Source: Nocardioides sp. NBC_00368 (GTDB lineage Bacteria; Actinomycetota; Actinomycetes; Propionibacteriales; Nocardioidaceae). Taken from it: DNA of 24,000 bases. The notes under the pieces were generated by a model, which saw only the letters and a program-made list of their open reading frames with translations, was not told the DNA's origin and ran no database searches. A program made the position numbers and the translations under genes. How positions within the stretch are numbered: the stretch's first letter is position 1; each line of letters starts with the position of its first letter. This document shows positions 3,008 to 13,378 of the stretch, piece by piece. The DNA lies in contig NZ_CP107970.1 of the NCBI RefSeq assembly GCF_036090055.1, positions 2,922,635 through 2,946,634 of the forward strand. The letters are read 5' to 3'.

Positions 3008-4786
3008 ATGCCCAGTGCCATGCCGAGCTGGTCCGACGTGCTGACGCACTCCCTCGAACGGCTCAAGGAACGAGCATCGACCGACCCCGATGCCGGGGTC
3101 CGCGACGGGATCCTCGCCTCCTGGCGTCGCTCCTACGACAGCCAGGCGCTCGGCGACCGTCTCGACCTGCCCTACGACGACAACCTCAACCTCTCGACCA
3201 GGCTGGTCCGCGCCGCCCGCCCCGTCATCGAGAAGGTCCAGAACGATATCGACGGCAGCCCGCTGACGCTCATCCTCGGCGACAGCACCGGCAAGGTGCT
3301 GCTGCGCCACTCCGGCGAGCCCTGCCTCGAGGGACAGCTCGACCGCGCGCTGCTCGCTCCGGGGTTCAGCTACGCCGAGAAGTACGCCGGCACCAACGGC
3401 ATCGGCACCGCTCTCGAGGACAGGTCGACCGCCCTCGTGCGAGGTGCCGAGCACTTCAACGAGCAGCTCCAGGTGTTCGCCTGCGTCGGCGTTCCCGTGC
3501 GCGACCCCATCACCCGCCGCCAGCTCGGCGTCCTGGACATCACCACCTGGGCGGACCGTGCGCATCCCGCGCTCACGGCGTTGGTCCGACAGGCCGGCGC
3601 CTCGATCGAGGACAGTCTGCTCACCATGTCGAGCCGAGGTGCTCGGTCGCTGCTGGAGGAGTATCTGCGCAGCAGCCGGGCCGCCGAGGACCGCATCATC
3701 GCCGTCAGCGACGAGGCGTTCATCGGATCCGCCACCGCGGCCACCCGCATCGGCGGACTGGGGCGACCCGAGCTGTGGGCGCTGACTGTGGACGCGCTCG
3801 GCAGCTCCGACCGCGCCGAGATCTCCCTCATGTCCGGCACCGAGTACGCCACCACCCTGACCGTGCGTGCCCTCCGCTCGCCCTACGGCCGACTCGACGG
3901 CGCGATCGTCGAGATCCCTTCCTCCGCTCCGGCGCCGCCGATCCAGCAGTCGAGCCCGGCCCAGCCCCGCGGAGCCCACCAGCTCAGCCCGCTGGTCCTC
4001 GGCCCGATGGCCATGGTCGGCCGCATGGCGGCCGCCCGCCTGCCGGTGTGTCTCGTCGGCGAGCCCGGCACCGGCAAGCGCACCCTCATCCAGGACATCG
4101 CGACGCGCGAGTTCCCGGGGCGTACGGTCGTCGTCATCGACTGCGGTGACGACGACATCGAGGCCAAGCTCGGCTCGGTCGGCGAGCATCTCGCCGATGG
4201 TCGTCCCGTCATCGTCCGCGACGCCGACGGACTGGCGTCGGGACGTCTCGCGGAGCTGGTCAGCAGCATGGATCTACCCTCGGCCAGCGGCTGGCTCACC
4301 TTCACCACGCGCAGGCATCACAAGAGCGCCGAGGGATCCGAGGAGGCCGAGGGCGACCTGGCCGCCGCCGGCATCCCGATGATCGCCCTTCCCCCGCTGA
4401 GGGCACGCGTCCAGGACCTACGCGTCCTGCTGCCCGACATGGTTCGCCGGCTGAGCCGCGGACGTGTCACCTCGGTCTCCCCCGAGCTGCTCACCCGCCT
4501 GATCCGCGAACCGTGGCCGGGGAACCTCGCCGAGGTCGTCGAGCTGGTCACCACCATGATCCCCTCGGCGACCGATTCCGTCCTGCGCGAGCAGCACCTG
4601 CCGGCAGACTTCGGCAGCGGGCTGCGGTATCGGCTCACCCCGCTGGAATGGATGACCCGGGACGCCATCGTGGAGTCGCTGCGCGCCTGCGACTGGGACA
4701 AGGCGCGCGCCGCCGAGGCGCTCGGCATGTCCCGGGCCTCGATCTACCGCAAGATCAAGGCCTACAACATCGAGCCCGGCGCCTGA
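3008..4786 (+). CDS. AcoR/MimR-type transcriptional activator (GAF sensor, degenerate AAA+ module, C-terminal Fis-type HTH)
   Basis: AcoR-type GAF motifs ('YAEKYAGTNGIGTALE', 'GAEHFNEQLQVFACVGVPVRDP..GVLDI'). Walker A 'GEPGTGKR'. Motifs 'LPPLRARVQDL' and 'WPGNLAEV'. C-terminal HTH 'KARAAEALGMSRASIYRKIKAY'. No GAFTGA motif is visible. Confidence 0.85.
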   Translation: MPSAMPSWSDVLTHSLERLKERASTDPDAGVRDGILASWRRSYDSQALGDRLDLPYDDNLNLSTRLVRAARPVIEKVQNDIDGSPLTLILGDSTGKVLLRHSGEPCLEGQLDRALLAPGFSYAEKYAGTNGIGTALEDRSTALVRGAEHFNEQLQVFACVGVPVRDPITRRQLGVLDITTWADRAHPALTALVRQAGASIEDSLLTMSSRGARSLLEEYLRSSRAAEDRIIAVSDEAFIGSATAATRIGGLGRPELWALTVDALGSSDRAEISLMSGTEYATTLTVRALRSPYGRLDGAIVEIPSSAPAPPIQQSSPAQPRGAHQLSPLVLGPMAMVGRMAAARLPVCLVGEPGTGKRTLIQDIATREFPGRTVVVIDCGDDDIEAKLGSVGEHLADGRPVIVRDADGLASGRLAELVSSMDLPSASGWLTFTTRRHHKSAEGSEEAEGDLAAAGIPMIALPPLRARVQDLRVLLPDMVRRLSRGRVTSVSPELLTRLIREPWPGNLAEVVELVTTMIPSATDSVLREQHLPADFGSGLRYRLTPLEWMTRDAIVESLRACDWDKARAAEALGMSRASIYRKIKAYNIEPGA

Positions 4787-4938: not shown

Positions 4939-6246
4939 TCACAGTCCCATCAGGAGAACGAGACCTGTCGAGGTCAGACCGACCATCAACAGGAGGTACG
5001 GCAGCTGCCCCACGGCAACCGATCGCGGACGGAGCTCCTCGAGCGAGCGGTCGTGAGCCGCCACGACGCCGACGACGTGTCCACAGACGACCGCGGCGAG
5101 CTGAACGACGGCGATCGTCCGGGGTGAGACGACCAGGTAGTCGATCGACGACTGCGCCGAGCCGAAGAGGTCCCATCCCCGCCCGAACGGATCGGAGGCC
5201 AGGATCGCGCCGACCTGACCCTGGAAGACCGCGAACGAGAAGTAGTGGGCCACGGTGTAACCGACGATGATGGGCACCAAGGTGTGCGCGAAGGCCCGTG
5301 ACGTCCCGTCGGCATACCTCGAGAAGGCATCGGTGGCCCGCATCGCGAGCTGGTAGGCCCCGGCGACGAGCAGGACGGCGGCGACCAGGCCGAGGGTGCC
5401 GGTGATCAGATAGCCGGGTCCGACGAGGTCGCGGGTCAGGTCGCCCCAGAACGAGGTCCGGGTCACCCCGTCGAAGGCCGTCGACCCGAGCAGCGTGCAG
5501 AGCACGGCGAGCTGCCCCGGCGGGACCGGCATGGCGGCGAGACCGGCCAGCGGGTGGCGAAGCACCGCCTCGCCCTCCGCCGAGCGCCCCCACGGCGCCA
5601 GCCGTCCGATGGTCGCCGAATAGACCTCCAGGCCGTCGGCGGCGTCGAACCACCGCGGACCGGCCACCGCACCGCCGATCCCGTGCACGAGGACGTACGC
5701 GGTCACGAACCCGGCCACCACCCGCGGCTCGTCGGAGTGGTCGAAGACGAGCTCCAGCCACAGGAACACGCCCAGCGAGACGACGGCCGGCCATCGCCCC
5801 GCACCCGCCGGAAGCCCGGCCTGTCGTAGGCGGGACGGCACGAACCGGCTCAGCAACCGTGCCAGTGCCCGCACCGGGTTGAGGAACCGCCAGATCGGCC
5901 CCAGGAGAAGCGAGCACGGCACCAGACCGACCCACACCCACACGTAGAGCCAGGTGGGAGCCGGGTTCGTCGCCACGCTGGCCGGACCGAACCAGGCGAC
6001 CGCGAGGAACACCACGGTCCCGGCCAGCGCGACCGCCTGTGCGAGCCGTGAGGCCCGCTCCCCCACCGCGACCTGTACCCACCGCGGGAGCGCGACCCCG
6101 TCCTCGGTCGCGAACCTGCTCGAGCGCCACAGCAGGCCGAGCGCGAGAAAGGAGAACAGCAGGACCCCCACCGCGACGTACAGGGCGACCCAGACCGGGA
6201 TCGGAAGATCCGAGCGGCCACCCAGCCCGTGTGTCAGGATCATCAC
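4939..6246 (-). CDS. Polytopic integral membrane protein (about 10-12 TM helices) of unknown function, CuMMO-cluster associated
   Basis: Strongly hydrophobic 435-aa ORF with high GC3. The start (GTG 6246 or ATG 6243) overlaps the stop of the lipoprotein gene. It has the N-terminal motif 'THGLGGRSDLPIP' and several intramembrane His residues ('VLVHGIGG', 'YTVAHYF', 'VCGHVVGVVAAHD'). I recognise no family. Confidence 0.75.
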   Translation of the reverse strand: MMILTHGLGGRSDLPIPVWVALYVAVGVLLFSFLALGLLWRSSRFATEDGVALPRWVQVAVGERASRLAQAVALAGTVVFLAVAWFGPASVATNPAPTWLYVWVWVGLVPCSLLLGPIWRFLNPVRALARLLSRFVPSRLRQAGLPAGAGRWPAVVSLGVFLWLELVFDHSDEPRVVAGFVTAYVLVHGIGGAVAGPRWFDAADGLEVYSATIGRLAPWGRSAEGEAVLRHPLAGLAAMPVPPGQLAVLCTLLGSTAFDGVTRTSFWGDLTRDLVGPGYLITGTLGLVAAVLLVAGAYQLAMRATDAFSRYADGTSRAFAHTLVPIIVGYTVAHYFSFAVFQGQVGAILASDPFGRGWDLFGSAQSSIDYLVVSPRTIAVVQLAAVVCGHVVGVVAAHDRSLEELRPRSVAVGQLPYLLLMVGLTSTGLVLLMGL

Positions 6247-6695
6247 TTCACCTCGAGCTCGACGAGCAGCGCACCCGCTCCCTCCAGCTCCACCTCGAAA
6301 CGGCCCGGGATGTCGGCGGTGAAGGTGAGCGCGCCCTCCTGACCGGCCACGAGATCGACGTGCGCGTCGTAGCCGTGCACATGCACCTCGTCCGCGACGT
6401 CGCTGGTGACGGCGAGCGTCACCGACTCGCCGAGAGCGACGCGCTCGACGTGGGCCGGCGGGGAGAGCTTCCCGGCCACGATCTCGATCCGGATGACATC
6501 ACCCGTCGGCCGCGAGCTCGCCGTCGGGGCATCCGGCGGCGAGGGCGTGGTAGTCCCCGAGGGCTCCGCGGTCTGAGTCGAACCGTGTCCGGCGTGGTCC
6601 GCCTCCGCCGCGGTGGAGGTCTCCGCTCCGCATCCGCTGAGAGCCGAGGCGGCGAGGAGCGTCGCGACGGCAAGGGTGAGGCGTGCGCTGATCAT
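6243..6695 (-). CDS. Cupredoxin-like (EfeO-Cup / cupredoxin_1-like) lipoprotein with a His-rich linker
   Basis: Lipobox 'ALSG-C'. A Pro/Thr/Ser-rich linker contains 'ADHAGHGS'. A C-terminal beta-sandwich-like domain of about 85 aa reads 'IRIEIVAGKLSPP..V.LAVTSDVADEVHVHGYDAHVDL..G..TFTADIPGRFEVELE'. ATGA overlap with the upstream gene. Confidence 0.65.
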   Translation of the reverse strand: MISARLTLAVATLLAASALSGCGAETSTAAEADHAGHGSTQTAEPSGTTTPSPPDAPTASSRPTGDVIRIEIVAGKLSPPAHVERVALGESVTLAVTSDVADEVHVHGYDAHVDLVAGQEGALTFTADIPGRFEVELEGAGALLVELEVK

Positions 6696-7288
6696 GAGTG
6701 GTGGTTCCTTCCGAGACGGCGTTCATTGGCCACCAGACGGCTGCTGATGACGAGGGCGAGGACGAGACCGTGCACGAGGTGGATCCCGACCATCCACGGC
6801 CAGCCGATCAGGTTGCTCAGGCTCGAGGCCTCCGGTAGCGCGCCCACCACCGTCCCGACGACCTGGAGGCAGACCAGATAGAAGAAGCACATGAGGATGA
6901 CGCCGTGCAGCGCGGCGACGACGTACAGGGCACGTCCGGTGACCCGGTGGTTGCGCGTGCCGAGCGAGAAGATCGCTCCGCTCACGCCACCGAGGACCAC
7001 ACAGATCCCCAGTCCGCCGACGAACTCCTGCTGGAAGAAGGGTGCTGCCTCGCCGGCCGCCGTCGCGGCTTGCGACACCTCGAGGGCACCCGGCGACAGG
7101 ATCGAGACGATCGCGTAGAAGGGAGTCGCCGCACCGACTCCCTGGACCGCGCCGGCCAGGGCGAGCAGCGCGATGATGACCAGGGCCGACAAACTGCCGG
7201 CGACCGCTCCGCGCTCGATCGCGGCATCGAACGCTCGCCAGCCCGTCGGCGACTCATCCACCGCAGGGTGGCTTCTCATGCCGGTCAC
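6692..7288 (-). CDS. Polytopic membrane protein (about 5-6 TM helices) of unknown function
   Basis: Hydrophobic 198-aa ORF. The GTG start overlaps the stop of the upstream small ORF (GTGA); an alternative ATG lies at 7279. The stop overlaps the lipoprotein ATG. Confidence 0.7.
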   Translation of the reverse strand: MTGMRSHPAVDESPTGWRAFDAAIERGAVAGSLSALVIIALLALAGAVQGVGAATPFYAIVSILSPGALEVSQAATAAGEAAPFFQQEFVGGLGICVVLGGVSGAIFSLGTRNHRVTGRALYVVAALHGVILMCFFYLVCLQVVGTVVGALPEASSLSNLIGWPWMVGIHLVHGLVLALVISSRLVANERRLGRNHHS

Positions 7289-7590
7289 TTCCCGTCCGCC
7301 TGGTCTGCGGGCACGGTCTCCCGGGTCCGGGTGGGCTCCTCGGCATCTCGCTTGAGGAGCTCTTCGAGCTCGAAGTACTTACCGCTGAAGAGCAGTCGCG
7401 CACCCGTCGGCCGCTCATCGCGGTAGCCGGACTGGTAGCGCCGCTTCGACGTGCCCGACATGTCGATCGAGAGCATCAGCACGAAGATGCCGATCAACAG
7501 CCCTCCGAGGATGACCGGGCCGAGCCCGATCAGCATGTCCATGGAGCTCGTGCCGCCCCCGTGCATCGGCAGAATTTTCGGGATGGTCAT
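7285..7590 (-). CDS. Small single-pass membrane protein (101 aa) with a Met/His-rich extracytoplasmic N-terminus; first gene after pmoB
   Basis: An AGGAG sequence lies 8 nt upstream of the ATG at 7590. The track's GTG at 7599 abuts that RBS and is unlikely to be the start. The sequence is 'MTIPKILPMHGGGTSSMDM', then the TM helix 'LIGLGPVILGGLLIGIFVLMLSI', then a K/R-rich tail, which predicts an N-out topology. Confidence 0.7.
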   Translation of the reverse strand: MTIPKILPMHGGGTSSMDMLIGLGPVILGGLLIGIFVLMLSIDMSGTSKRRYQSGYRDERPTGARLLFSGKYFELEELLKRDAEEPTRTRETVPADQADGK

Positions 7591-7618
7591 GGTGTGCACT
7601 CCTGGTTCAAGGGTGGAA

Positions 7619-7654
7619 ACCCGGTGGTGCCGAGGGAGAACGGCACCACCGGGT
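7619..7654 (-). terminator. Perfect 14-bp-stem / 8-nt-loop hairpin between pmoB and the downstream genes; candidate attenuator or mRNA-stabilising / processing element
   Basis: ACCCGGTGGTGCCG (7619-7632) and CGGCACCACCGGGT (7641-7654) are exact reverse complements. On the transcribed strand the stem is followed only by 'TTCCACCCTT', so there is no strong U-tract. Confidence 0.6.
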
Positions 7655-7666
7655 GAACGTGTTCCG

Positions 7667-8887
7667 TCAGGCCATGGCCGACGGAGTGACGAAGCTCTGG
7701 ATGGTCACGAAGTTCTCGTGGCCGGCCTCGTCCTGGAGGCGCAGCACGCCGGTGAGCTGCATGCGCGACTCGCCGACCGGCATGAGCCGCTCCTTGGCCC
7801 ACACCTCGTCCGTGATGCTCATCGTCAGCTCGCGCGTCTCGCCGGGGGCGATCGGCGTGGCCGGCGAGATCTGGACGGACCGCCCCTCACTCCCCGCCTC
7901 GGCCACCGGGAAGGTGAGCGTGCTCGTCATGAACGACTCCACCGACGCCGGCGAGGTTCCCGTGTTCGTCACCTTCACCTTGGCCGTCACGGTGTCCGTC
8001 GCCGGGTCGAACGCCCCATCGGACGCATCCGCGGTGACGAACTTGGCATCGACCACCGCATCCTCCGGGGCGAAGTGGAGCACCTGCTGCGGCATCTTGT
8101 CCGGGTAGGCCTGCGCCTGCCACACCATGCCTCCCACCACCAGGGCGATGGTCGCGCCCATCATGATGTTCATGACGCGGTGGTCCTTCTTGGTGATCAG
8201 CCCGTACGCCCCACCGTCGGTGTTGAGCGGGATCTGGCTCGTCACCGGCAGACGTGTGACGGTCGGCTTCGGGACGATCCAGTAGAGGAGCCAGGCGAAC
8301 CCGATCACCAGCCAGATGACGTTCCAGAAGGTGACGCCACCCATGCCGATGTTCTCGAGGTCGGCCGTCTTCCCGCTCAGCAGCTTGACCTCGTTGGTGA
8401 AGCCGCCGGCGGACTCCGTCACGTCGACGTACTGCCCCGGGCCGATGAGCGAGCCCGCTCCATGGATGCCGAAGATGGGATGCACGTGCCAGTGACCGAC
8501 CCGGCGCCCCTGGAGCACCATCTTGAACTGGTAGACGCCGCCCTTCTCGATCTCGATCGCCATCGGCGCGGGCGCGCCGTTGACGGTGCGCTCCTTGATG
8601 ACGACGGTCGGGCCCGGGGCGATCACACCGATGAAGCCGAGCTTCGGCTCCGCGAGCTGCTCAGGGTAGGTCTCGAGGATCTTCGCGGTGCCCGTGATGG
8701 TGAGCTCCTCACCCTGGGCGACCTTCTCGGCCGAGTACTTCACGTCCCAGAAGGCGACCGTGCCCATCCGGAGGAAGGCCTCCTGGGCCGTCTCTCCGTG
8801 AGCCGACGCCGGTGCCGGCGGCAGCGCGAGCACGACGGCGACGGCAGCGGCCAACACCGCTCCGATGTACTTCAGTTTGCTACGCAT
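7667..8887 (-). CDS. pmoB: Copper membrane monooxygenase subunit B (PmoB/AmoB/BmoB/HmoB family)
   Basis: A signal peptide ending 'ASA' is followed by 'HGETAQEAFLRMGTVAFWD' (compare methanotroph PmoB 'HGEKSQAAFMRMRT'). The 'GHWHVHP' HxH motif, two central TM helices and a C-terminal cupredoxin-like domain are present. RBS GAGGAG. Confidence 0.95.
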   Translation of the reverse strand: MRSKLKYIGAVLAAAVAVVLALPPAPASAHGETAQEAFLRMGTVAFWDVKYSAEKVAQGEELTITGTAKILETYPEQLAEPKLGFIGVIAPGPTVVIKERTVNGAPAPMAIEIEKGGVYQFKMVLQGRRVGHWHVHPIFGIHGAGSLIGPGQYVDVTESAGGFTNEVKLLSGKTADLENIGMGGVTFWNVIWLVIGFAWLLYWIVPKPTVTRLPVTSQIPLNTDGGAYGLITKKDHRVMNIMMGATIALVVGGMVWQAQAYPDKMPQQVLHFAPEDAVVDAKFVTADASDGAFDPATDTVTAKVKVTNTGTSPASVESFMTSTLTFPVAEAGSEGRSVQISPATPIAPGETRELTMSITDEVWAKERLMPVGESRMQLTGVLRLQDEAGHENFVTIQSFVTPSAMA

Positions 8888-10623: not shown

Positions 10624-11661
10624 TCAGGGGATGAGGACGGCCCGACCGCGCACCCGTCCGTGGTGCAGGTCGTCGAGCGCGACGTTGGCGTCGTCGAGGG
10701 GGTAGATCTGGGAGTGGAGGGTGACCTTCTTGGCCGCGGCCAGCTCCATCAGCTCGGAGAGCTCGGTGTAGTTGCCGACGAGGCTGCCGACGACGCTGAT
10801 CTCGCTGAAGATGACCTGCAGGGCCGGCACGTTGACGTTGCCGCCGTATCCGACGACGTAGTAGGTCCCGCCCTGGCGCAGCATGTTCGGGCCCTGGTCG
10901 GTGGTGCCGTGCTCGGCGACGAAGTCGATGACGGCCTCGACCCCGTCTCCTCCGGCGAGGTCCTTGACCGCCTCGACGACGTCGCCCTCGCCTGCATCGA
11001 CGGTGATGTCCGCACCGATCTGCTTCGCGAGCTCGAGGGCGTCGGGGTTTGTGTCGACGACCACGATCTCGGTGGGGCTGAGCGCCTTGAGCGACTGGAT
11101 CGCGATGTGGCCCAGGCCGCCGGCTCCGATCACCACCGTCTTGGTGCCGGCCTGGAGCCGGGGTACGGCCTTCTTGACGGCCCGGTACGCGGTGATGCCG
11201 GCATCCGCGAGCGGCGCGACGTCGACCGGCTGGAGGCTCGGATCGAGCTTGATGCAGGCGCGCTCGTTCGTGAGCATGTACTCGGCGTACCCGCCGTCCA
11301 TCGCGAGCCCCGGGAATCCGGCCGTCTCGCAGTACATGTCCTCTCCGCGGCGGCACCCCGCGCAGACGCCACAGGTGATGTGCGGGTGGAGGATCACCGT
11401 GTCGCCGGGCGCCACCGTGGTGACCGCCGAGCCGACCTCGTCGACCCAGCCCGCGTTCTCGTGGCCGAGGATGAACGGCAGGAGCGTGCCCTCGGTGTCG
11501 AGCGTGTCCTTCCAGACCTTCTCGATCACATGGAGGTCCGTTCGGCACACGCCCGCGGCGCCCACCTTGATCACCACGTCGTGCGGCCCGGTGATCCGGG
11601 GCTTGGGCACGTCCTCGAGGACCAGCTTCGAGTCATAGGTGTAGAGCCGGGCGGCCTTCAT
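10624..11661 (-). CDS. Zn-dependent (medium-chain) alcohol dehydrogenase
   Basis: Catalytic Zn ligands 'GVCRTDLH' and 'GHENAG'. Structural Zn motif 'CGVCAGCRRGEDMYC'. Rossmann motif 'GAGGLG'. Start at ATG 11661 with a GAAGGAG RBS, overlapping the DUF59 gene stop (ATGA). Confidence 0.9.
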   Translation of the reverse strand: MKAARLYTYDSKLVLEDVPKPRITGPHDVVIKVGAAGVCRTDLHVIEKVWKDTLDTEGTLLPFILGHENAGWVDEVGSAVTTVAPGDTVILHPHITCGVCAGCRRGEDMYCETAGFPGLAMDGGYAEYMLTNERACIKLDPSLQPVDVAPLADAGITAYRAVKKAVPRLQAGTKTVVIGAGGLGHIAIQSLKALSPTEIVVVDTNPDALELAKQIGADITVDAGEGDVVEAVKDLAGGDGVEAVIDFVAEHGTTDQGPNMLRQGGTYYVVGYGGNVNVPALQVIFSEISVVGSLVGNYTELSELMELAAAKKVTLHSQIYPLDDANVALDDLHHGRVRGRAVLIP

Positions 11662-12365
11662 GCCACTTCTCCTTCGGTGACGACGGTGAGTTCTGAGGGG
11701 TAGCGCTCCGCGAGCAGCGCCTTGCAGAGATGACCGTTGCCCTCGAAGGACACGGCCATCACCCGAGCAGACCGCCGGTGGGCCCGGACCTGCTCCGGGC
11801 CCACCGGACGGCCATCGGCGGCGATGAGGAAGGGGTCGTCGTGGCGGCAACCGACCCCGAGCTCCTCTCGCGTGGTCAGGTACTTCCCGAGACCGGGAAG
11901 CTCGAGGCGGGCGACGTCTCCCAGCACGAGGTCGACCAGACTCTCGGCGTCGACACCGATCTCCTCCAGCTGGCGACAGACCTGCTCCTGGCGGATCAGC
12001 AGGGTCTTGCGCCGGAAGTGGTCGCGCAGGTCCTCGAGGTCGCCCTCCGCCTCGCTGGGGAACGCGGTCATGAACCCGCCCCTGCTCTGCACGCCGGACT
12101 GGATCCGCTCCGACTCGAAGTGGTCCTCGACGGAGACGGTGACCGCACCCTTTCCGACGACGCGCTCCGCCGCCTGACGTACGTCGTCCACCATCAGCCA
12201 GGTGAAGTTCGGCGCACAGAAGTACGTCGGCAGCTGCATGACGATGCGCACCCGACCGCCTTCCTCGGTGACGGAGCGGATGAACCCCATGTCAGTCACC
12301 GAGCGGTCGACCTCGGGGTCGTGCACCTCATCCAGCGCCGCGAGGACGTCGGACGCGGTCGACAT
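11658..12365 (-). CDS. DUF59/MIP18-domain protein (Fe-S / metal-cluster-assembly-like N-terminal domain plus an uncharacterised C-terminal domain)
   Basis: The N-terminus 'DVLAALDEVHDPEVDRSVTDMGFIRSV...LPTYFCAPNF' resembles the DUF59 fold. The ATG at 12365 overlaps the amidohydrolase stop (ATGA). The track's longer ORF (to 12941) is an out-of-context extension through the amidohydrolase gene. Confidence 0.75.
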   Translation of the reverse strand: MSTASDVLAALDEVHDPEVDRSVTDMGFIRSVTEEGGRVRIVMQLPTYFCAPNFTWLMVDDVRQAAERVVGKGAVTVSVEDHFESERIQSGVQSRGGFMTAFPSEAEGDLEDLRDHFRRKTLLIRQEQVCRQLEEIGVDAESLVDLVLGDVARLELPGLGKYLTTREELGVGCRHDDPFLIAADGRPVGPEQVRAHRRSARVMAVSFEGNGHLCKALLAERYPSELTVVTEGEVA

Positions 12366-13378
12366 CAGGCCACGACCTCGGCGAGGACGTCCACCTCTGC
12401 GACTCCGACGACGTCCTCCGGGACCTCGATGTCGTACAGGCGCGCGGCGTTGAGGCCGAGGACCTTGGCCTTCTGGACGTCGGTGATGGCGTCGTACTCG
12501 CTGCCCTCGGAGAACTGGAAGTCGAGGAACTTCTCGACCAGCCAGCGCGGGGTCCAGATCGCGTAGTCGCTGCCGAAGCAGATCTTGTCCTCGCCGAGCC
12601 AGTAGAGGAGCTCGCCCATGATCTGCTCGAAGTAGCGGGGCTTGGCATGGACGAACGGCATCGCGACCGCCATGCCGGCGTAGACGTTGTGCTCCTGGGT
12701 GCCGATCCAGCAGAAGTCCTCGAGCCTGGGCAGGCCGATGTGCTCGACGATGAAGTTGAGGTCCTGGAAATCGGTGGCCACGTGGTCGACGTCGTGGACA
12801 TCGAAGGCATCCCGGTCGAGCGGCCAGACCGTGGGGCCCTTGTGGATGTGGATGTTCTTGATGCCGAGCTCCTGGGACTTCTCCAGGTAGCGGTAGGCCA
12901 TCGGATCGGTGAGCGAGTAGCCACGGGAGTCGCCCTGCCACTCCGCGGTGTAGAGCTTGACGCCCTGGATCTTCCGCTCGGAAGCCTCCTTCTCGAGCAG
13001 CTCGAGACCTTCCTCACCGAAGCGTGGGTCCCACGAGGTGTTGAGGATGAACCTGCCCGGGTTCTCCTCGACCAGCTCGAGCGCCTCCTTCTCGCGGCGG
13101 AAGCCGGTCCTATAGAACGCGCCGAGGACCGTCGGGTTGAAGATCGCGACGTCGACGCCGCCGTTGTCGAGGACGTCCTTGACGACGTCCTCCTTCTCGA
13201 TCTTCGCGAAGCGCTCCTTCGACCACTTCTCCTCCTCGGGGGAGAGCCCGTTGTGGTAGTCGAAGAAGCACTGGGTCCAGCCCTTGCCGTAGTCGTTCAG
13301 GCAGTTCTCGTCCGAGCCGTCCCAGATGTGGATGTGGCCGTCGACGATGAAGTAGTTCTTGCCGTCCCTGGTGATCAT
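12365..13378 (-). CDS. Amidohydrolase-2 family (TIM-barrel metal-dependent hydrolase)
   Basis: 'FIVDGHIHIWD' HxH metal motif near the N-terminus, plus '..IVEHIG..' and 'FGSDY' motifs. ATG 13378 is preceded by an AGGAGGA RBS. It is the first gene of the cluster. Confidence 0.85.
   Translation of the reverse strand: MITRDGKNYFIVDGHIHIWDGSDENCLNDYGKGWTQCFFDYHNGLSPEEEKWSKERFAKIEKEDVVKDVLDNGGVDVAIFNPTVLGAFYRTGFRREKEALELVEENPGRFILNTSWDPRFGEEGLELLEKEASERKIQGVKLYTAEWQGDSRGYSLTDPMAYRYLEKSQELGIKNIHIHKGPTVWPLDRDAFDVHDVDHVATDFQDLNFIVEHIGLPRLEDFCWIGTQEHNVYAGMAVAMPFVHAKPRYFEQIMGELLYWLGEDKICFGSDYAIWTPRWLVEKFLDFQFSEGSEYDAITDVQKAKVLGLNAARLYDIEVPEDVVGVAEVDVLAEVVA

Follow-up and report, generated by a model that had tools for sequence, protein, structure and literature searches.

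The composition of the copper-dependent membrane monooxygenases (CuMMOs) is under revision, with extra helices found in bacterial ammonia monooxygenase (AMO) and particulate methane monooxygenase (pMMO) and three extra subunits proposed for archaeal AMO; their active site and copper loading are still debated. Small single-helix proteins, proposed or shown to lie beside subunit C at the periphery of the membrane domain, were long overlooked owing to their size (PMC12804982, PMC13058606). Here we describe orfD, a gene for a small membrane protein that directly follows pmoB in a CuMMO cluster of Nocardioides sp. NBC_00368 (contig NZ_CP107970.1, positions 2,922,635 to 2,946,634; this stretch of 24,000 nucleotides is referred to as the window). 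On the sequence evidence, the product of orfD is a strong candidate for an accessory subunit that has so far escaped notice, or for a helper in copper loading of the enzyme.

In PmoD and AmoD, a signal peptide precedes a soluble domain of ~100 amino acids, which is cupredoxin-like and has a Cys-bridged CuA site, and a C-terminal transmembrane (TM) helix anchors the protein (PMC13058606). Proteobacterial PmoD is encoded directly after pmoB; it has been tied to the copper-dependent function of the CuMMO but not proven to be a structural subunit (PMC13058606, PMC10030591). In the AMO of Nitrosomonas halophila, a protein also termed 'AmoD' (NZ4318) forms a single TM helix beside AmoC in the N-in/C-out orientation, and its gene, which is unlinked to amoCAB, belongs to one Nitrosomonas lineage (PMC12804982). 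A 23-residue open reading frame (ORF) has been assigned to the exogenous helix of the pMMO of Methylocystis sp. Rockwell (PMC13058606), and comammox AMO contains further unassigned helices, Helix1 and Helix2 (bioRxiv 10.64898/2026.09.02.748776). Archaeal AmoX, AmoY and AmoZ are likely extra subunits, as judged by the linkage and co-expression of their genes and by proteomics of native gels (PMC10030591, PMC13058606).

Like PmoD and AmoD (and AmoE), OrfD is membrane-anchored, with its putative functional part on the outer side of the membrane, and is encoded by the first gene 3′ of the subunit B gene (xmoB). Unlike PmoD and AmoD, it has only 19 aa outside the cell in the predicted topology, with the helix close to the N-terminus and the remaining tail in the cytoplasm; its AlphaFold2 (AF2) model contains helices only and no beta domain, and it contains no Cys, nor is any Cys conserved in the family alignments. 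The assignment of OrfD as PmoD/AmoD was rejected, as every defining feature of that protein (architecture, Cys, sequence similarity) is missing; the closest thing to a PmoD fold in the operon, if any, is the product of orfF, on weak evidence. With the AmoD helix of AMO and the pMMO helix, OrfD shares the build of a small single-helix protein. It differs from the AMO AmoD helix in that it is predicted to lie N-out/C-in (13 of 13 members), always adjoins xmoB, and carries a conserved extracytoplasmic His motif and a cytoplasmic tail of ~60 aa. Like AmoX, AmoY and AmoZ, OrfD is a small membrane protein that is conserved alongside the CuMMO genes throughout a lineage. Those three proteins, which are thought to replace helices missing from archaeal AmoC/AmoB, belong to different sequence families and have proteomic support. 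In Nocardioides, PmoA, PmoB and PmoC are all of full length, so that OrfD would supply an additional helix. Judged by its sequence, OrfD is thus the same kind of object as the small helix partners of CuMMOs, and differs from them in its family, predicted orientation, conserved extracytoplasmic His and strict operon linkage.

None of the orfD family members matched Pfam or NCBIfam. A profile of the close-family alignment (A1) gave no match at E <= 10 among all PDB chains, a library that includes PmoD structures and lacks chains under 20 residues. No mention of an orfD-type ORF was found in the CuMMO literature covered, where 'hmoD' occurs in unrelated uses only; the primary papers on particulate butane monooxygenase (pBMO) and hydrocarbon monooxygenase (HMO) lay outside that coverage, and an earlier mention or existing functional data are possible. 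Annotation pipelines label the family examples encountered 'hypothetical protein', and no database names the family.

A small gene after xmoB in three deeply diverged lineages

The results showed that a small ORF of the orfD build lies directly after xmoB in 16 of 16 assessable distinct loci, window included, whose PmoB identity to the window ranges from 95% down to 30%. In every one of them it is the first ORF 3′ of xmoB, on the same strand, after a gap of 47–112 nt. The sequence-only reading had proposed to look for a conserved homologue downstream of pmoB in other actinobacterial CuMMO clusters and had named its absence as the outcome that would speak against a dedicated component; the homologue was found throughout.

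A search of 5.8 billion proteins with orfD returned 11 relatives (56–97% identity), all without a name and from metagenome or read-archive sources. An exhaustive profile search of 1.8 billion representative proteins gave 11 matches at E <= 1e-3, including more distant members down to E = 8e-8. The gene order pmoC-pmoA-pmoB-orfD-orfE was seen in all recovered contexts, namely two Nocardioides genomes (L001, L002), L004, L005, L011/L012, L013/L014 (from two NCBI assemblies) and L016/L017. As a second route, metagenome contigs were searched with a PmoB alignment, which does not presuppose the ORF and so avoids circularity. This search yielded seven loci, one of which ends within pmoB, and the other six all carry an orfD-type ORF directly after pmoB. 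Two of these loci, L021 and L022, are nearly identical in sequence and were counted as one lineage. PmoB of the L021/L022 lineage, L023 and L024 is only 44–46% identical to that of the window, and their small ORFs start MLAHAADASGWGMLAF, MLGFMLAHGGDASGLGMLAF and MNLYAQWLAHGGASDAGPVLVML, respectively.

Some matches were discarded. Locus L003 (36-1403), from a metagenome-assembled genome of Ktedonobacteraceae, encodes an unrelated protein of 455 aa whose tandem GYRDERPTG-like low-complexity repeats match the cytoplasmic motif of OrfD by chance. P0019–P0021 were marginal profile matches (E = 2e-4 to 6e-4) with 'IRAD' replacing the His motif, and were not accepted as family members. P0019 (E = 2e-4), which adjoins a TetR gene on a 1.4-kb contig, was the sole non-CuMMO context met; with this marginal match not counted, no family member was seen outside CuMMO clusters in the recovered contexts.

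A tblastn search of plasmids with PmoB recovered hmoCAB clusters from four Mycobacteriales: Mycolicibacterium chubuense NBB4, M. dioxanotrophicus PH-06 and Rhodococcus ZPP and WAY2. PmoB of these four clusters is 30–33% identical to that of the window, no nearer than a methanotroph homologue. In each of the four, the next annotated gene begins 73–94 nt downstream of hmoB and encodes a 'hypothetical protein' of 71–98 aa; that of NBB4, Mycch_5908, has 71 aa. These proteins start M..(I/Y)LAHGGQ(L/M)T(S/G)DE(I/M)A(F/L)(I/M)G.G and continue with a TM helix, which is followed by RRTR in three of the four. The ILAHGG start is shared by distant Nocardioides-type members (P0012–P0017).

Taken together, these data show that the architecture and His motif are conserved, with strict linkage to xmoB, in three deeply diverged lineages. 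Conservation of the ORF after xmoB across actinobacterial-type clusters makes a dedicated role with the CuMMO likely, and the function of orfD is very probably tied to this enzyme. A small His-bearing membrane protein is the one gene product that always accompanies xmoCAB across the lineages examined, and could bear on the components that a CuMMO needs in order to assemble and work.

Read on the minus strand from 7590 to 7285, orfD encodes MTIPKILPMHGGGTSSMDMLIGLGPVILGGLLIGIFVLMLSIDMSGTSKRRYQSGYRDERPTGARLLFSGKYFELEELLKRDAEEPTRTRETVPADQADGK, followed by a stop codon. GTG 7599, the start given in the mechanical ORF list, overlaps the AGGAG sequence, and independently called homologues start at the position of ATG 7590. 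The GC content at codon positions 1, 2 and 3 is 0.61, 0.45 and 0.88, similar to that of the adjacent genes. Comparison with the two Nocardioides genomes gave 20–24.5 synonymous and 4–6.5 non-synonymous changes (20 and 4 against L001), with a ratio of non-synonymous to synonymous substitution rates (dN/dS) of 0.056 against L001 and 0.07 against L002; the ratio was 0.13 between L001 and L002 and 0.3–0.47 in more distant pairs. The high third-position GC and the low dN/dS indicate a translated gene under purifying selection, and orfD almost certainly encodes a real protein.

These data also bear on the idea that orfD is an ordinary small membrane protein without a monooxygenase-specific function, or a spurious ORF. 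Such an idea could draw on the lack of any known domain matching OrfD, on the small size of the family (11 matches at E <= 1e-3 among 1.8 billion representatives) and on the frequency of small hydrophobic ORFs in high-GC DNA. It is very unlikely in view of the purifying selection, of a third-position GC content like that of the adjacent genes, and of the same position in 16 of 16 loci over so wide a range of PmoB identity; the family was not met outside CuMMO clusters, and conservation largely refutes the idea.

Predicted topology and conserved residues of OrfD

Hydropathy analysis (19-residue window) placed the hydrophobic core of OrfD at residues 20–38. The AF2 model contains a helix over residues 14–53, with a predicted local distance difference test score (pLDDT) of 85–92 in the TM part, short helices at 63–69 and 72–84 and then a disordered end; as a monomer model it is confident in the membrane part only and informative for the helix only. 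The N-terminal tail of 19 aa has a net charge of 0, and three Lys/Arg residues fall within 15 residues after the helix. The same asymmetry, with Lys/Arg absent or nearly so before the helix and present after it, was found in 13 of 13 members (OrfD and 12 relatives). The positive-inside pattern predicts an N-out/C-in orientation with a cytoplasmic tail of ~60 aa. The sequence-only reading had claimed a single TM helix with the N-terminus outside, and hydropathy, the AF2 model and the charge asymmetry all bear this out; its choice of ATG 7590 with AGGAG 8 nt upstream likewise agrees with the sequence and with the starts of the homologues.

Conserved residues were compared in three alignments, of the close family (A1), the wider Nocardioides-type set (A2) and the Mycobacteriales set (A3). 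Invariant in A1 are H10, G12, D18, M19, much of the helix (GLGPV.L) and nearly all of residues 54–79 (SGYRDERPTGARLLFSG.Y..LEELL). The residues invariant in A2 are H10, G12, G22, P25, L32, D58, P61, R65, F68, G70 and Y72. In A3, LAHGG is invariant and the cytoplasmic SGYRDERPTGARLLFSG-Y motif is absent. The His motif was also found in L018–L024. Three features are shared by all lineages: the topology, a helix whose outer half is rich in Gly and Pro, and, 9–13 residues ahead of that helix, an invariant His with small-residue neighbours.

The same alignments qualify the earlier description of the N-terminus as Met/His-rich and of its cluster as a classic Cu(I) motif. The description holds for OrfD of the window (M1, M9, H10, M17, M19) and fails as a family property, as only H10 and G12 of the tail are invariant. 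The Cu(I) motif was not upheld: M9 is replaced by Leu, Ala or Phe, M17 by Val, Leu, Ile or Ala, and M19 often by Ile, Leu or Val, and a single His is invariant. Two other kinds of metal site were considered and rejected. A histidine brace formed by leader cleavage ('A-HGG', like 'A|HGE' of PmoB) would need a hydrophobic signal core before the His, which is absent, and position −1 is Met, Leu or Phe in several members. An amino-terminal Cu(II)- and Ni(II)-binding (ATCUN) type of site needs a His at position 3, and the His of OrfD is elsewhere.

The strongest conservation in the Nocardioides-type clade is cytoplasmic, in the SGYRDERPTGARLLFSG-Y segment, and this would suit a regulatory or signalling membrane peptide whose cytoplasmic tail couples enzyme, substrate or copper status to a regulator encoded close by, either the MimR/AcoR-type activator or sigma/anti-sigma factors. 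A MimR-like regulator is found nearby in the window, L005 and L016, and a SigC gene (NBB4) and a gene for a zf-HC2 protein (PH-06) lie near the Mycobacteriales CuMMO clusters. However, proteins of the Mycobacteriales type and of L021–L024 lack the cytoplasmic motif, and their tails are short, acidic and variable; the part common to all lineages is the extracytoplasmic His motif with the helix, and orfD is linked to xmoB and not to a regulator, the position of which varies. A regulatory role is therefore quite improbable.

Candidate roles beside PmoCAB

The best reading of these results is that OrfD is an accessory membrane protein dedicated to the CuMMO, which either resembles a subunit or serves in copper loading. 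The more specific proposal is that it docks, as a subunit-like partner, on the membrane domain of PmoCAB and holds His10 at the outer face of the membrane; we put its probability at roughly 0.45. According to this proposal, OrfD would insert with its short N-terminal tail outside, one Gly/Pro-rich TM helix and the tail in the cytoplasm; its helix would pack against the PmoCAB membrane domain, making it a small, subunit-like fourth partner, by analogy with the single helices beside AmoC/PmoC in bacterial AMO and pMMO and with archaeal AmoX/Y/Z. His10 would then lie at the outer membrane surface, approximately level with the copper sites of PmoC, and might bind metal, hand copper on or serve as an anchor for a hydrogen bond, while the cytoplasmic SGYRDERPTGARLLFSG-Y segment might be a clade-specific docking element. 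That OrfD physically associates with PmoCAB, and what its His does there, are both inferred. The subunit-like reading is favoured by the universality of orfD alone among the downstream genes.

Several observations weigh against this reading. OrfD evolves faster than the catalytic subunits: in L005 the identity to the window is 89% for PmoC, 94% for PmoA, 80% for PmoB and 67% for OrfD, and in L013 it is 70%, 83%, 63% and 43%, respectively. Faster evolution is usual for small peripheral membrane proteins. On the supporting side, the comparison of the Nocardioides-type and Mycobacteriales alignments by hhalign gave a probability of 90.5% (E = 1.4e-6), but the match is short and includes the TM segment, which inflates similarity, and convergence under shared constraint is possible. 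A family rule, by which (L/S/P)(A/M/L/F)H(G/A)(G/A) occurs in the first 13 residues and is followed 9–13 residues on by a TM helix and then by Lys/Arg, fits the window protein. It matched only the orfD-type ORF in each of 17 CuMMO loci, among ~10,000 candidate starts in 228 kb, and gave no match in three control loci, among them an amoA-amoB-amoC (ABC-order) cluster of Methylomagnum. Since the rule had been derived from the family sequences on which it was tried, it shows specificity and is not an independent test. The remaining points against the subunit-like reading concern the arrangement of the operon. The spacer between pmoB and orfD, 76 nt in length, is the only sizeable gap in the operon and contains a strong hairpin, whereas overlapping stop and start codons (GTGA, ATGA, GTGATG) chain orfD, orfE, orfF and orfG, so that orfD is coupled to orfE-F-G rather than to pmoB. 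The hairpin and this coupling favour a copper-loading or assembly reading, and they agree with an accessory or assembly module made in a different dose no less well than with a subunit at 1:1 stoichiometry.

The 91-nt stretch 7585-7675, which includes the hairpin, folds with −41.1 kcal/mol (z = −4.1). Of the 15 other loci, 13 have a comparable hairpin, with a stem of 11–22 bp, in this spacer, all four Mycobacteriales clusters included; such hairpins are present in the window, L001, L002, L004–L009, L011, L013, L016, L018, L019 and L023, and weak or absent in L021 and L024. Their sequences are unrelated among loci, indicating that the structure and not the sequence is conserved. No U-tract follows the spacer hairpins, and the U-tract terminator scan reported no hairpin there; a canonical intrinsic terminator after pmoB was rejected accordingly. 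The hairpins could be partial terminators or 3′-end stabilizers of the pmoCAB transcript, and one so strong between pmoB and orfD suggests that orfD may be dosed differently from PmoCAB.

This arrangement gives some weight to a rival in which OrfD is not a subunit but serves, together with OrfE and, where present, OrfF and OrfG, in copper delivery or assembly; copper would be acquired at the outer membrane face and loaded into PmoB/PmoC during transient contact, with the His as hand-off ligand. The orfD-E-F-G string, joined by overlapping stop and start codons, is split from pmoCAB by the hairpin. In addition, orfE follows orfD in every Nocardioides-type locus, with a weak homologue (28% identical) in L024, and its product has five invariant Cys and His residues (C93, C131, H125, H167, H170) as well as the motifs PFYAI..DP and GWP. 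OrfE has six relatives among 5.8 billion proteins and no Pfam match or known domain, and its AF2 model (pLDDT 54.6) was too poor for a fold search; it is a possible candidate for a metal-handling partner. OrfF is a lipoprotein with sub-threshold cupredoxin-like matches and an HVHGYDAH motif, and no domain match was obtained for OrfG. The two genes occur together in L001, L002, L005, L006 (NBB4) and L008 (M. dioxanotrophicus), and this pair adjoins the distant NBB4 and M. dioxanotrophicus PH-06 CuMMO clusters (L006 11648-13071; L008 318-1972) with 30–49% identity, which suggests that orfF/orfG is a second CuMMO-linked module, possibly for copper supply. Proteobacterial PmoD, in the same position, offers a precedent, as a protein connected with copper-dependent growth that is not a structural subunit (PMC13058606, PMC10030591). 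Against the copper-delivery idea, only orfD is universal, orfE being missing from the Mycobacteriales clusters and orfF/orfG from many Nocardioides-type loci; a single His without a conserved Met or Cys would be a thin copper site for a chaperone, and OrfD has no homology to a known copper chaperone in Pfam, NCBIfam or PDB. We regard this explanation as possible but doubtful.

The subunit-like reading also has a stronger form, in which the LAHGG protein is an obligatory fourth subunit, its invariant extracytoplasmic His completing or gating a copper site or a substrate/proton path at the PmoC/PmoA surface, and is required for assembly of the active enzyme. To our knowledge, actinobacterial HMO and pBMO are the only CuMMOs reported active in recombinant form, in M. 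smegmatis. The stronger form is unlikely, but if true it would help to explain why Mycobacterium HMO was active when recombinant whereas pMMO and AMO have resisted expression from the three core genes alone. The HMO is reported to have been expressed from a fosmid in active recombinant form (PMC13058606), and the insert, given its large size, probably included the downstream ORFs.

Core genes and surroundings of the locus

The features of the window are listed in Table 1. Its base composition is actinobacterial (~0.64–0.74 GC), and the closest genome matches were Nocardioides sp. NPDC051685 and N. luteus BAFB. PmoA, PmoB and PmoC are full length and align across nearly the whole bacterial models. 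The closest PDB entry to PmoB is the PmoB of pMMO (E = 4e-61), and no actinobacterial CuMMO structure was found in the PDB searched. In PmoB, HGE directly follows the signal peptide and the CuB ligands HWHVH are present; in an alignment with Methylocystis PmoC, the ligand positions of CuC (D, H, H) and CuD (N, H, H) of PmoC correspond. All CuB, CuC and CuD ligands are thus kept in PmoB and PmoC, implying that OrfD is an addition to the enzyme and not a substitute for a missing part; a role as a stand-in for a lost core ligand is ruled out. In NCBIfam, PmoCAB did not reach the AMO and pMMO equivalog cut-offs, which is what a separate CuMMO lineage would be expected to show.

Table 1. Positions of genes and sequence features in the window (coordinates count from its first letter).
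Feature	Position	Strand	Remarks
Amidohydrolase	12365-13378	-	Top of the minus-strand gene string
FeS_assembly_P/DUF59 protein	~11658-12365	-	
Zn-alcohol dehydrogenase	10624-11661	-	
pmoC, 287 aa	9724..10587	-	Pfam PF04896, E = 6e-51
pmoA, 261 aa	8900..9685	-	Pfam PF02461, E = 8e-58; start codon verified
pmoB, 406 aa	7667..8887	-	Pfam PF04744, E = 1e-86; stop at 7667
Spacer hairpin, 14 bp, GC-rich	7619..7654	-	Between pmoB and orfD; followed by UUU only; RNA folding
Ribosome-binding site AGGAG	7599..7603	-	8 nt before ATG 7590; kept in L001, L002
orfD, 101-aa single-pass membrane protein	7285..7590	-	ATG 7590, TGA stop; 3′ of pmoB
orfD codons 7-12, LPMHGG	7555..7572	-	Local form of (L/S)AH(G/A)(G/A) with His10; H10, G12 invariant in A1, A2
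orfD codons 20-42, TM helix LIGLGPVILGGLLIGIFVLMLSI	7465..7533	-	Hydropathy; AF2 helix; outer half Gly/Pro-rich
orfD codons 54-79, cytoplasmic motif SGYRDERPTGARLLFSGKYFELEELL	7354..7431	-	Nocardioides-type clade only; almost all positions invariant in A1
orfE, 195-198 aa, ~4 TM	6692..7288	-	GTG start overlapping orfD stop
orfF, 150-aa lipoprotein	6243..6695	-	Start overlapping orfE stop
orfG, 435-aa polytopic membrane protein	4939..6246	-	Final gene of the string
MimR/AcoR-type activator	3008-4786	+	Convergent to the gene string

The CuMMO genes are under the control of the putative MimR-like activator. They are preceded by the amidohydrolase, FeS_assembly_P/DUF59 and Zn-alcohol dehydrogenase genes, an arrangement kept in L005, L011, L013 and L016. 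Together with a MimR-like regulator, this set is typical of clusters for soluble di-iron propane/acetone monooxygenases.

Two further observations were made in other loci. In L005, a WhiB-family gene (10890-11228), which is absent from the window, lies between the homologues of orfE and orfF/orfG. In NBB4 (L006 7450-7794) and M. dioxanotrophicus (L008 6513-6860), a second single-pass ORF of 114–115 aa overlaps the stop of the LAHGG ORF; it occupies the slot of the Nocardioides orfE, to which it has no detectable similarity, and its cytoplasmic tail carries a conserved (H/Q)EE(M/F).EFI..VERG motif.

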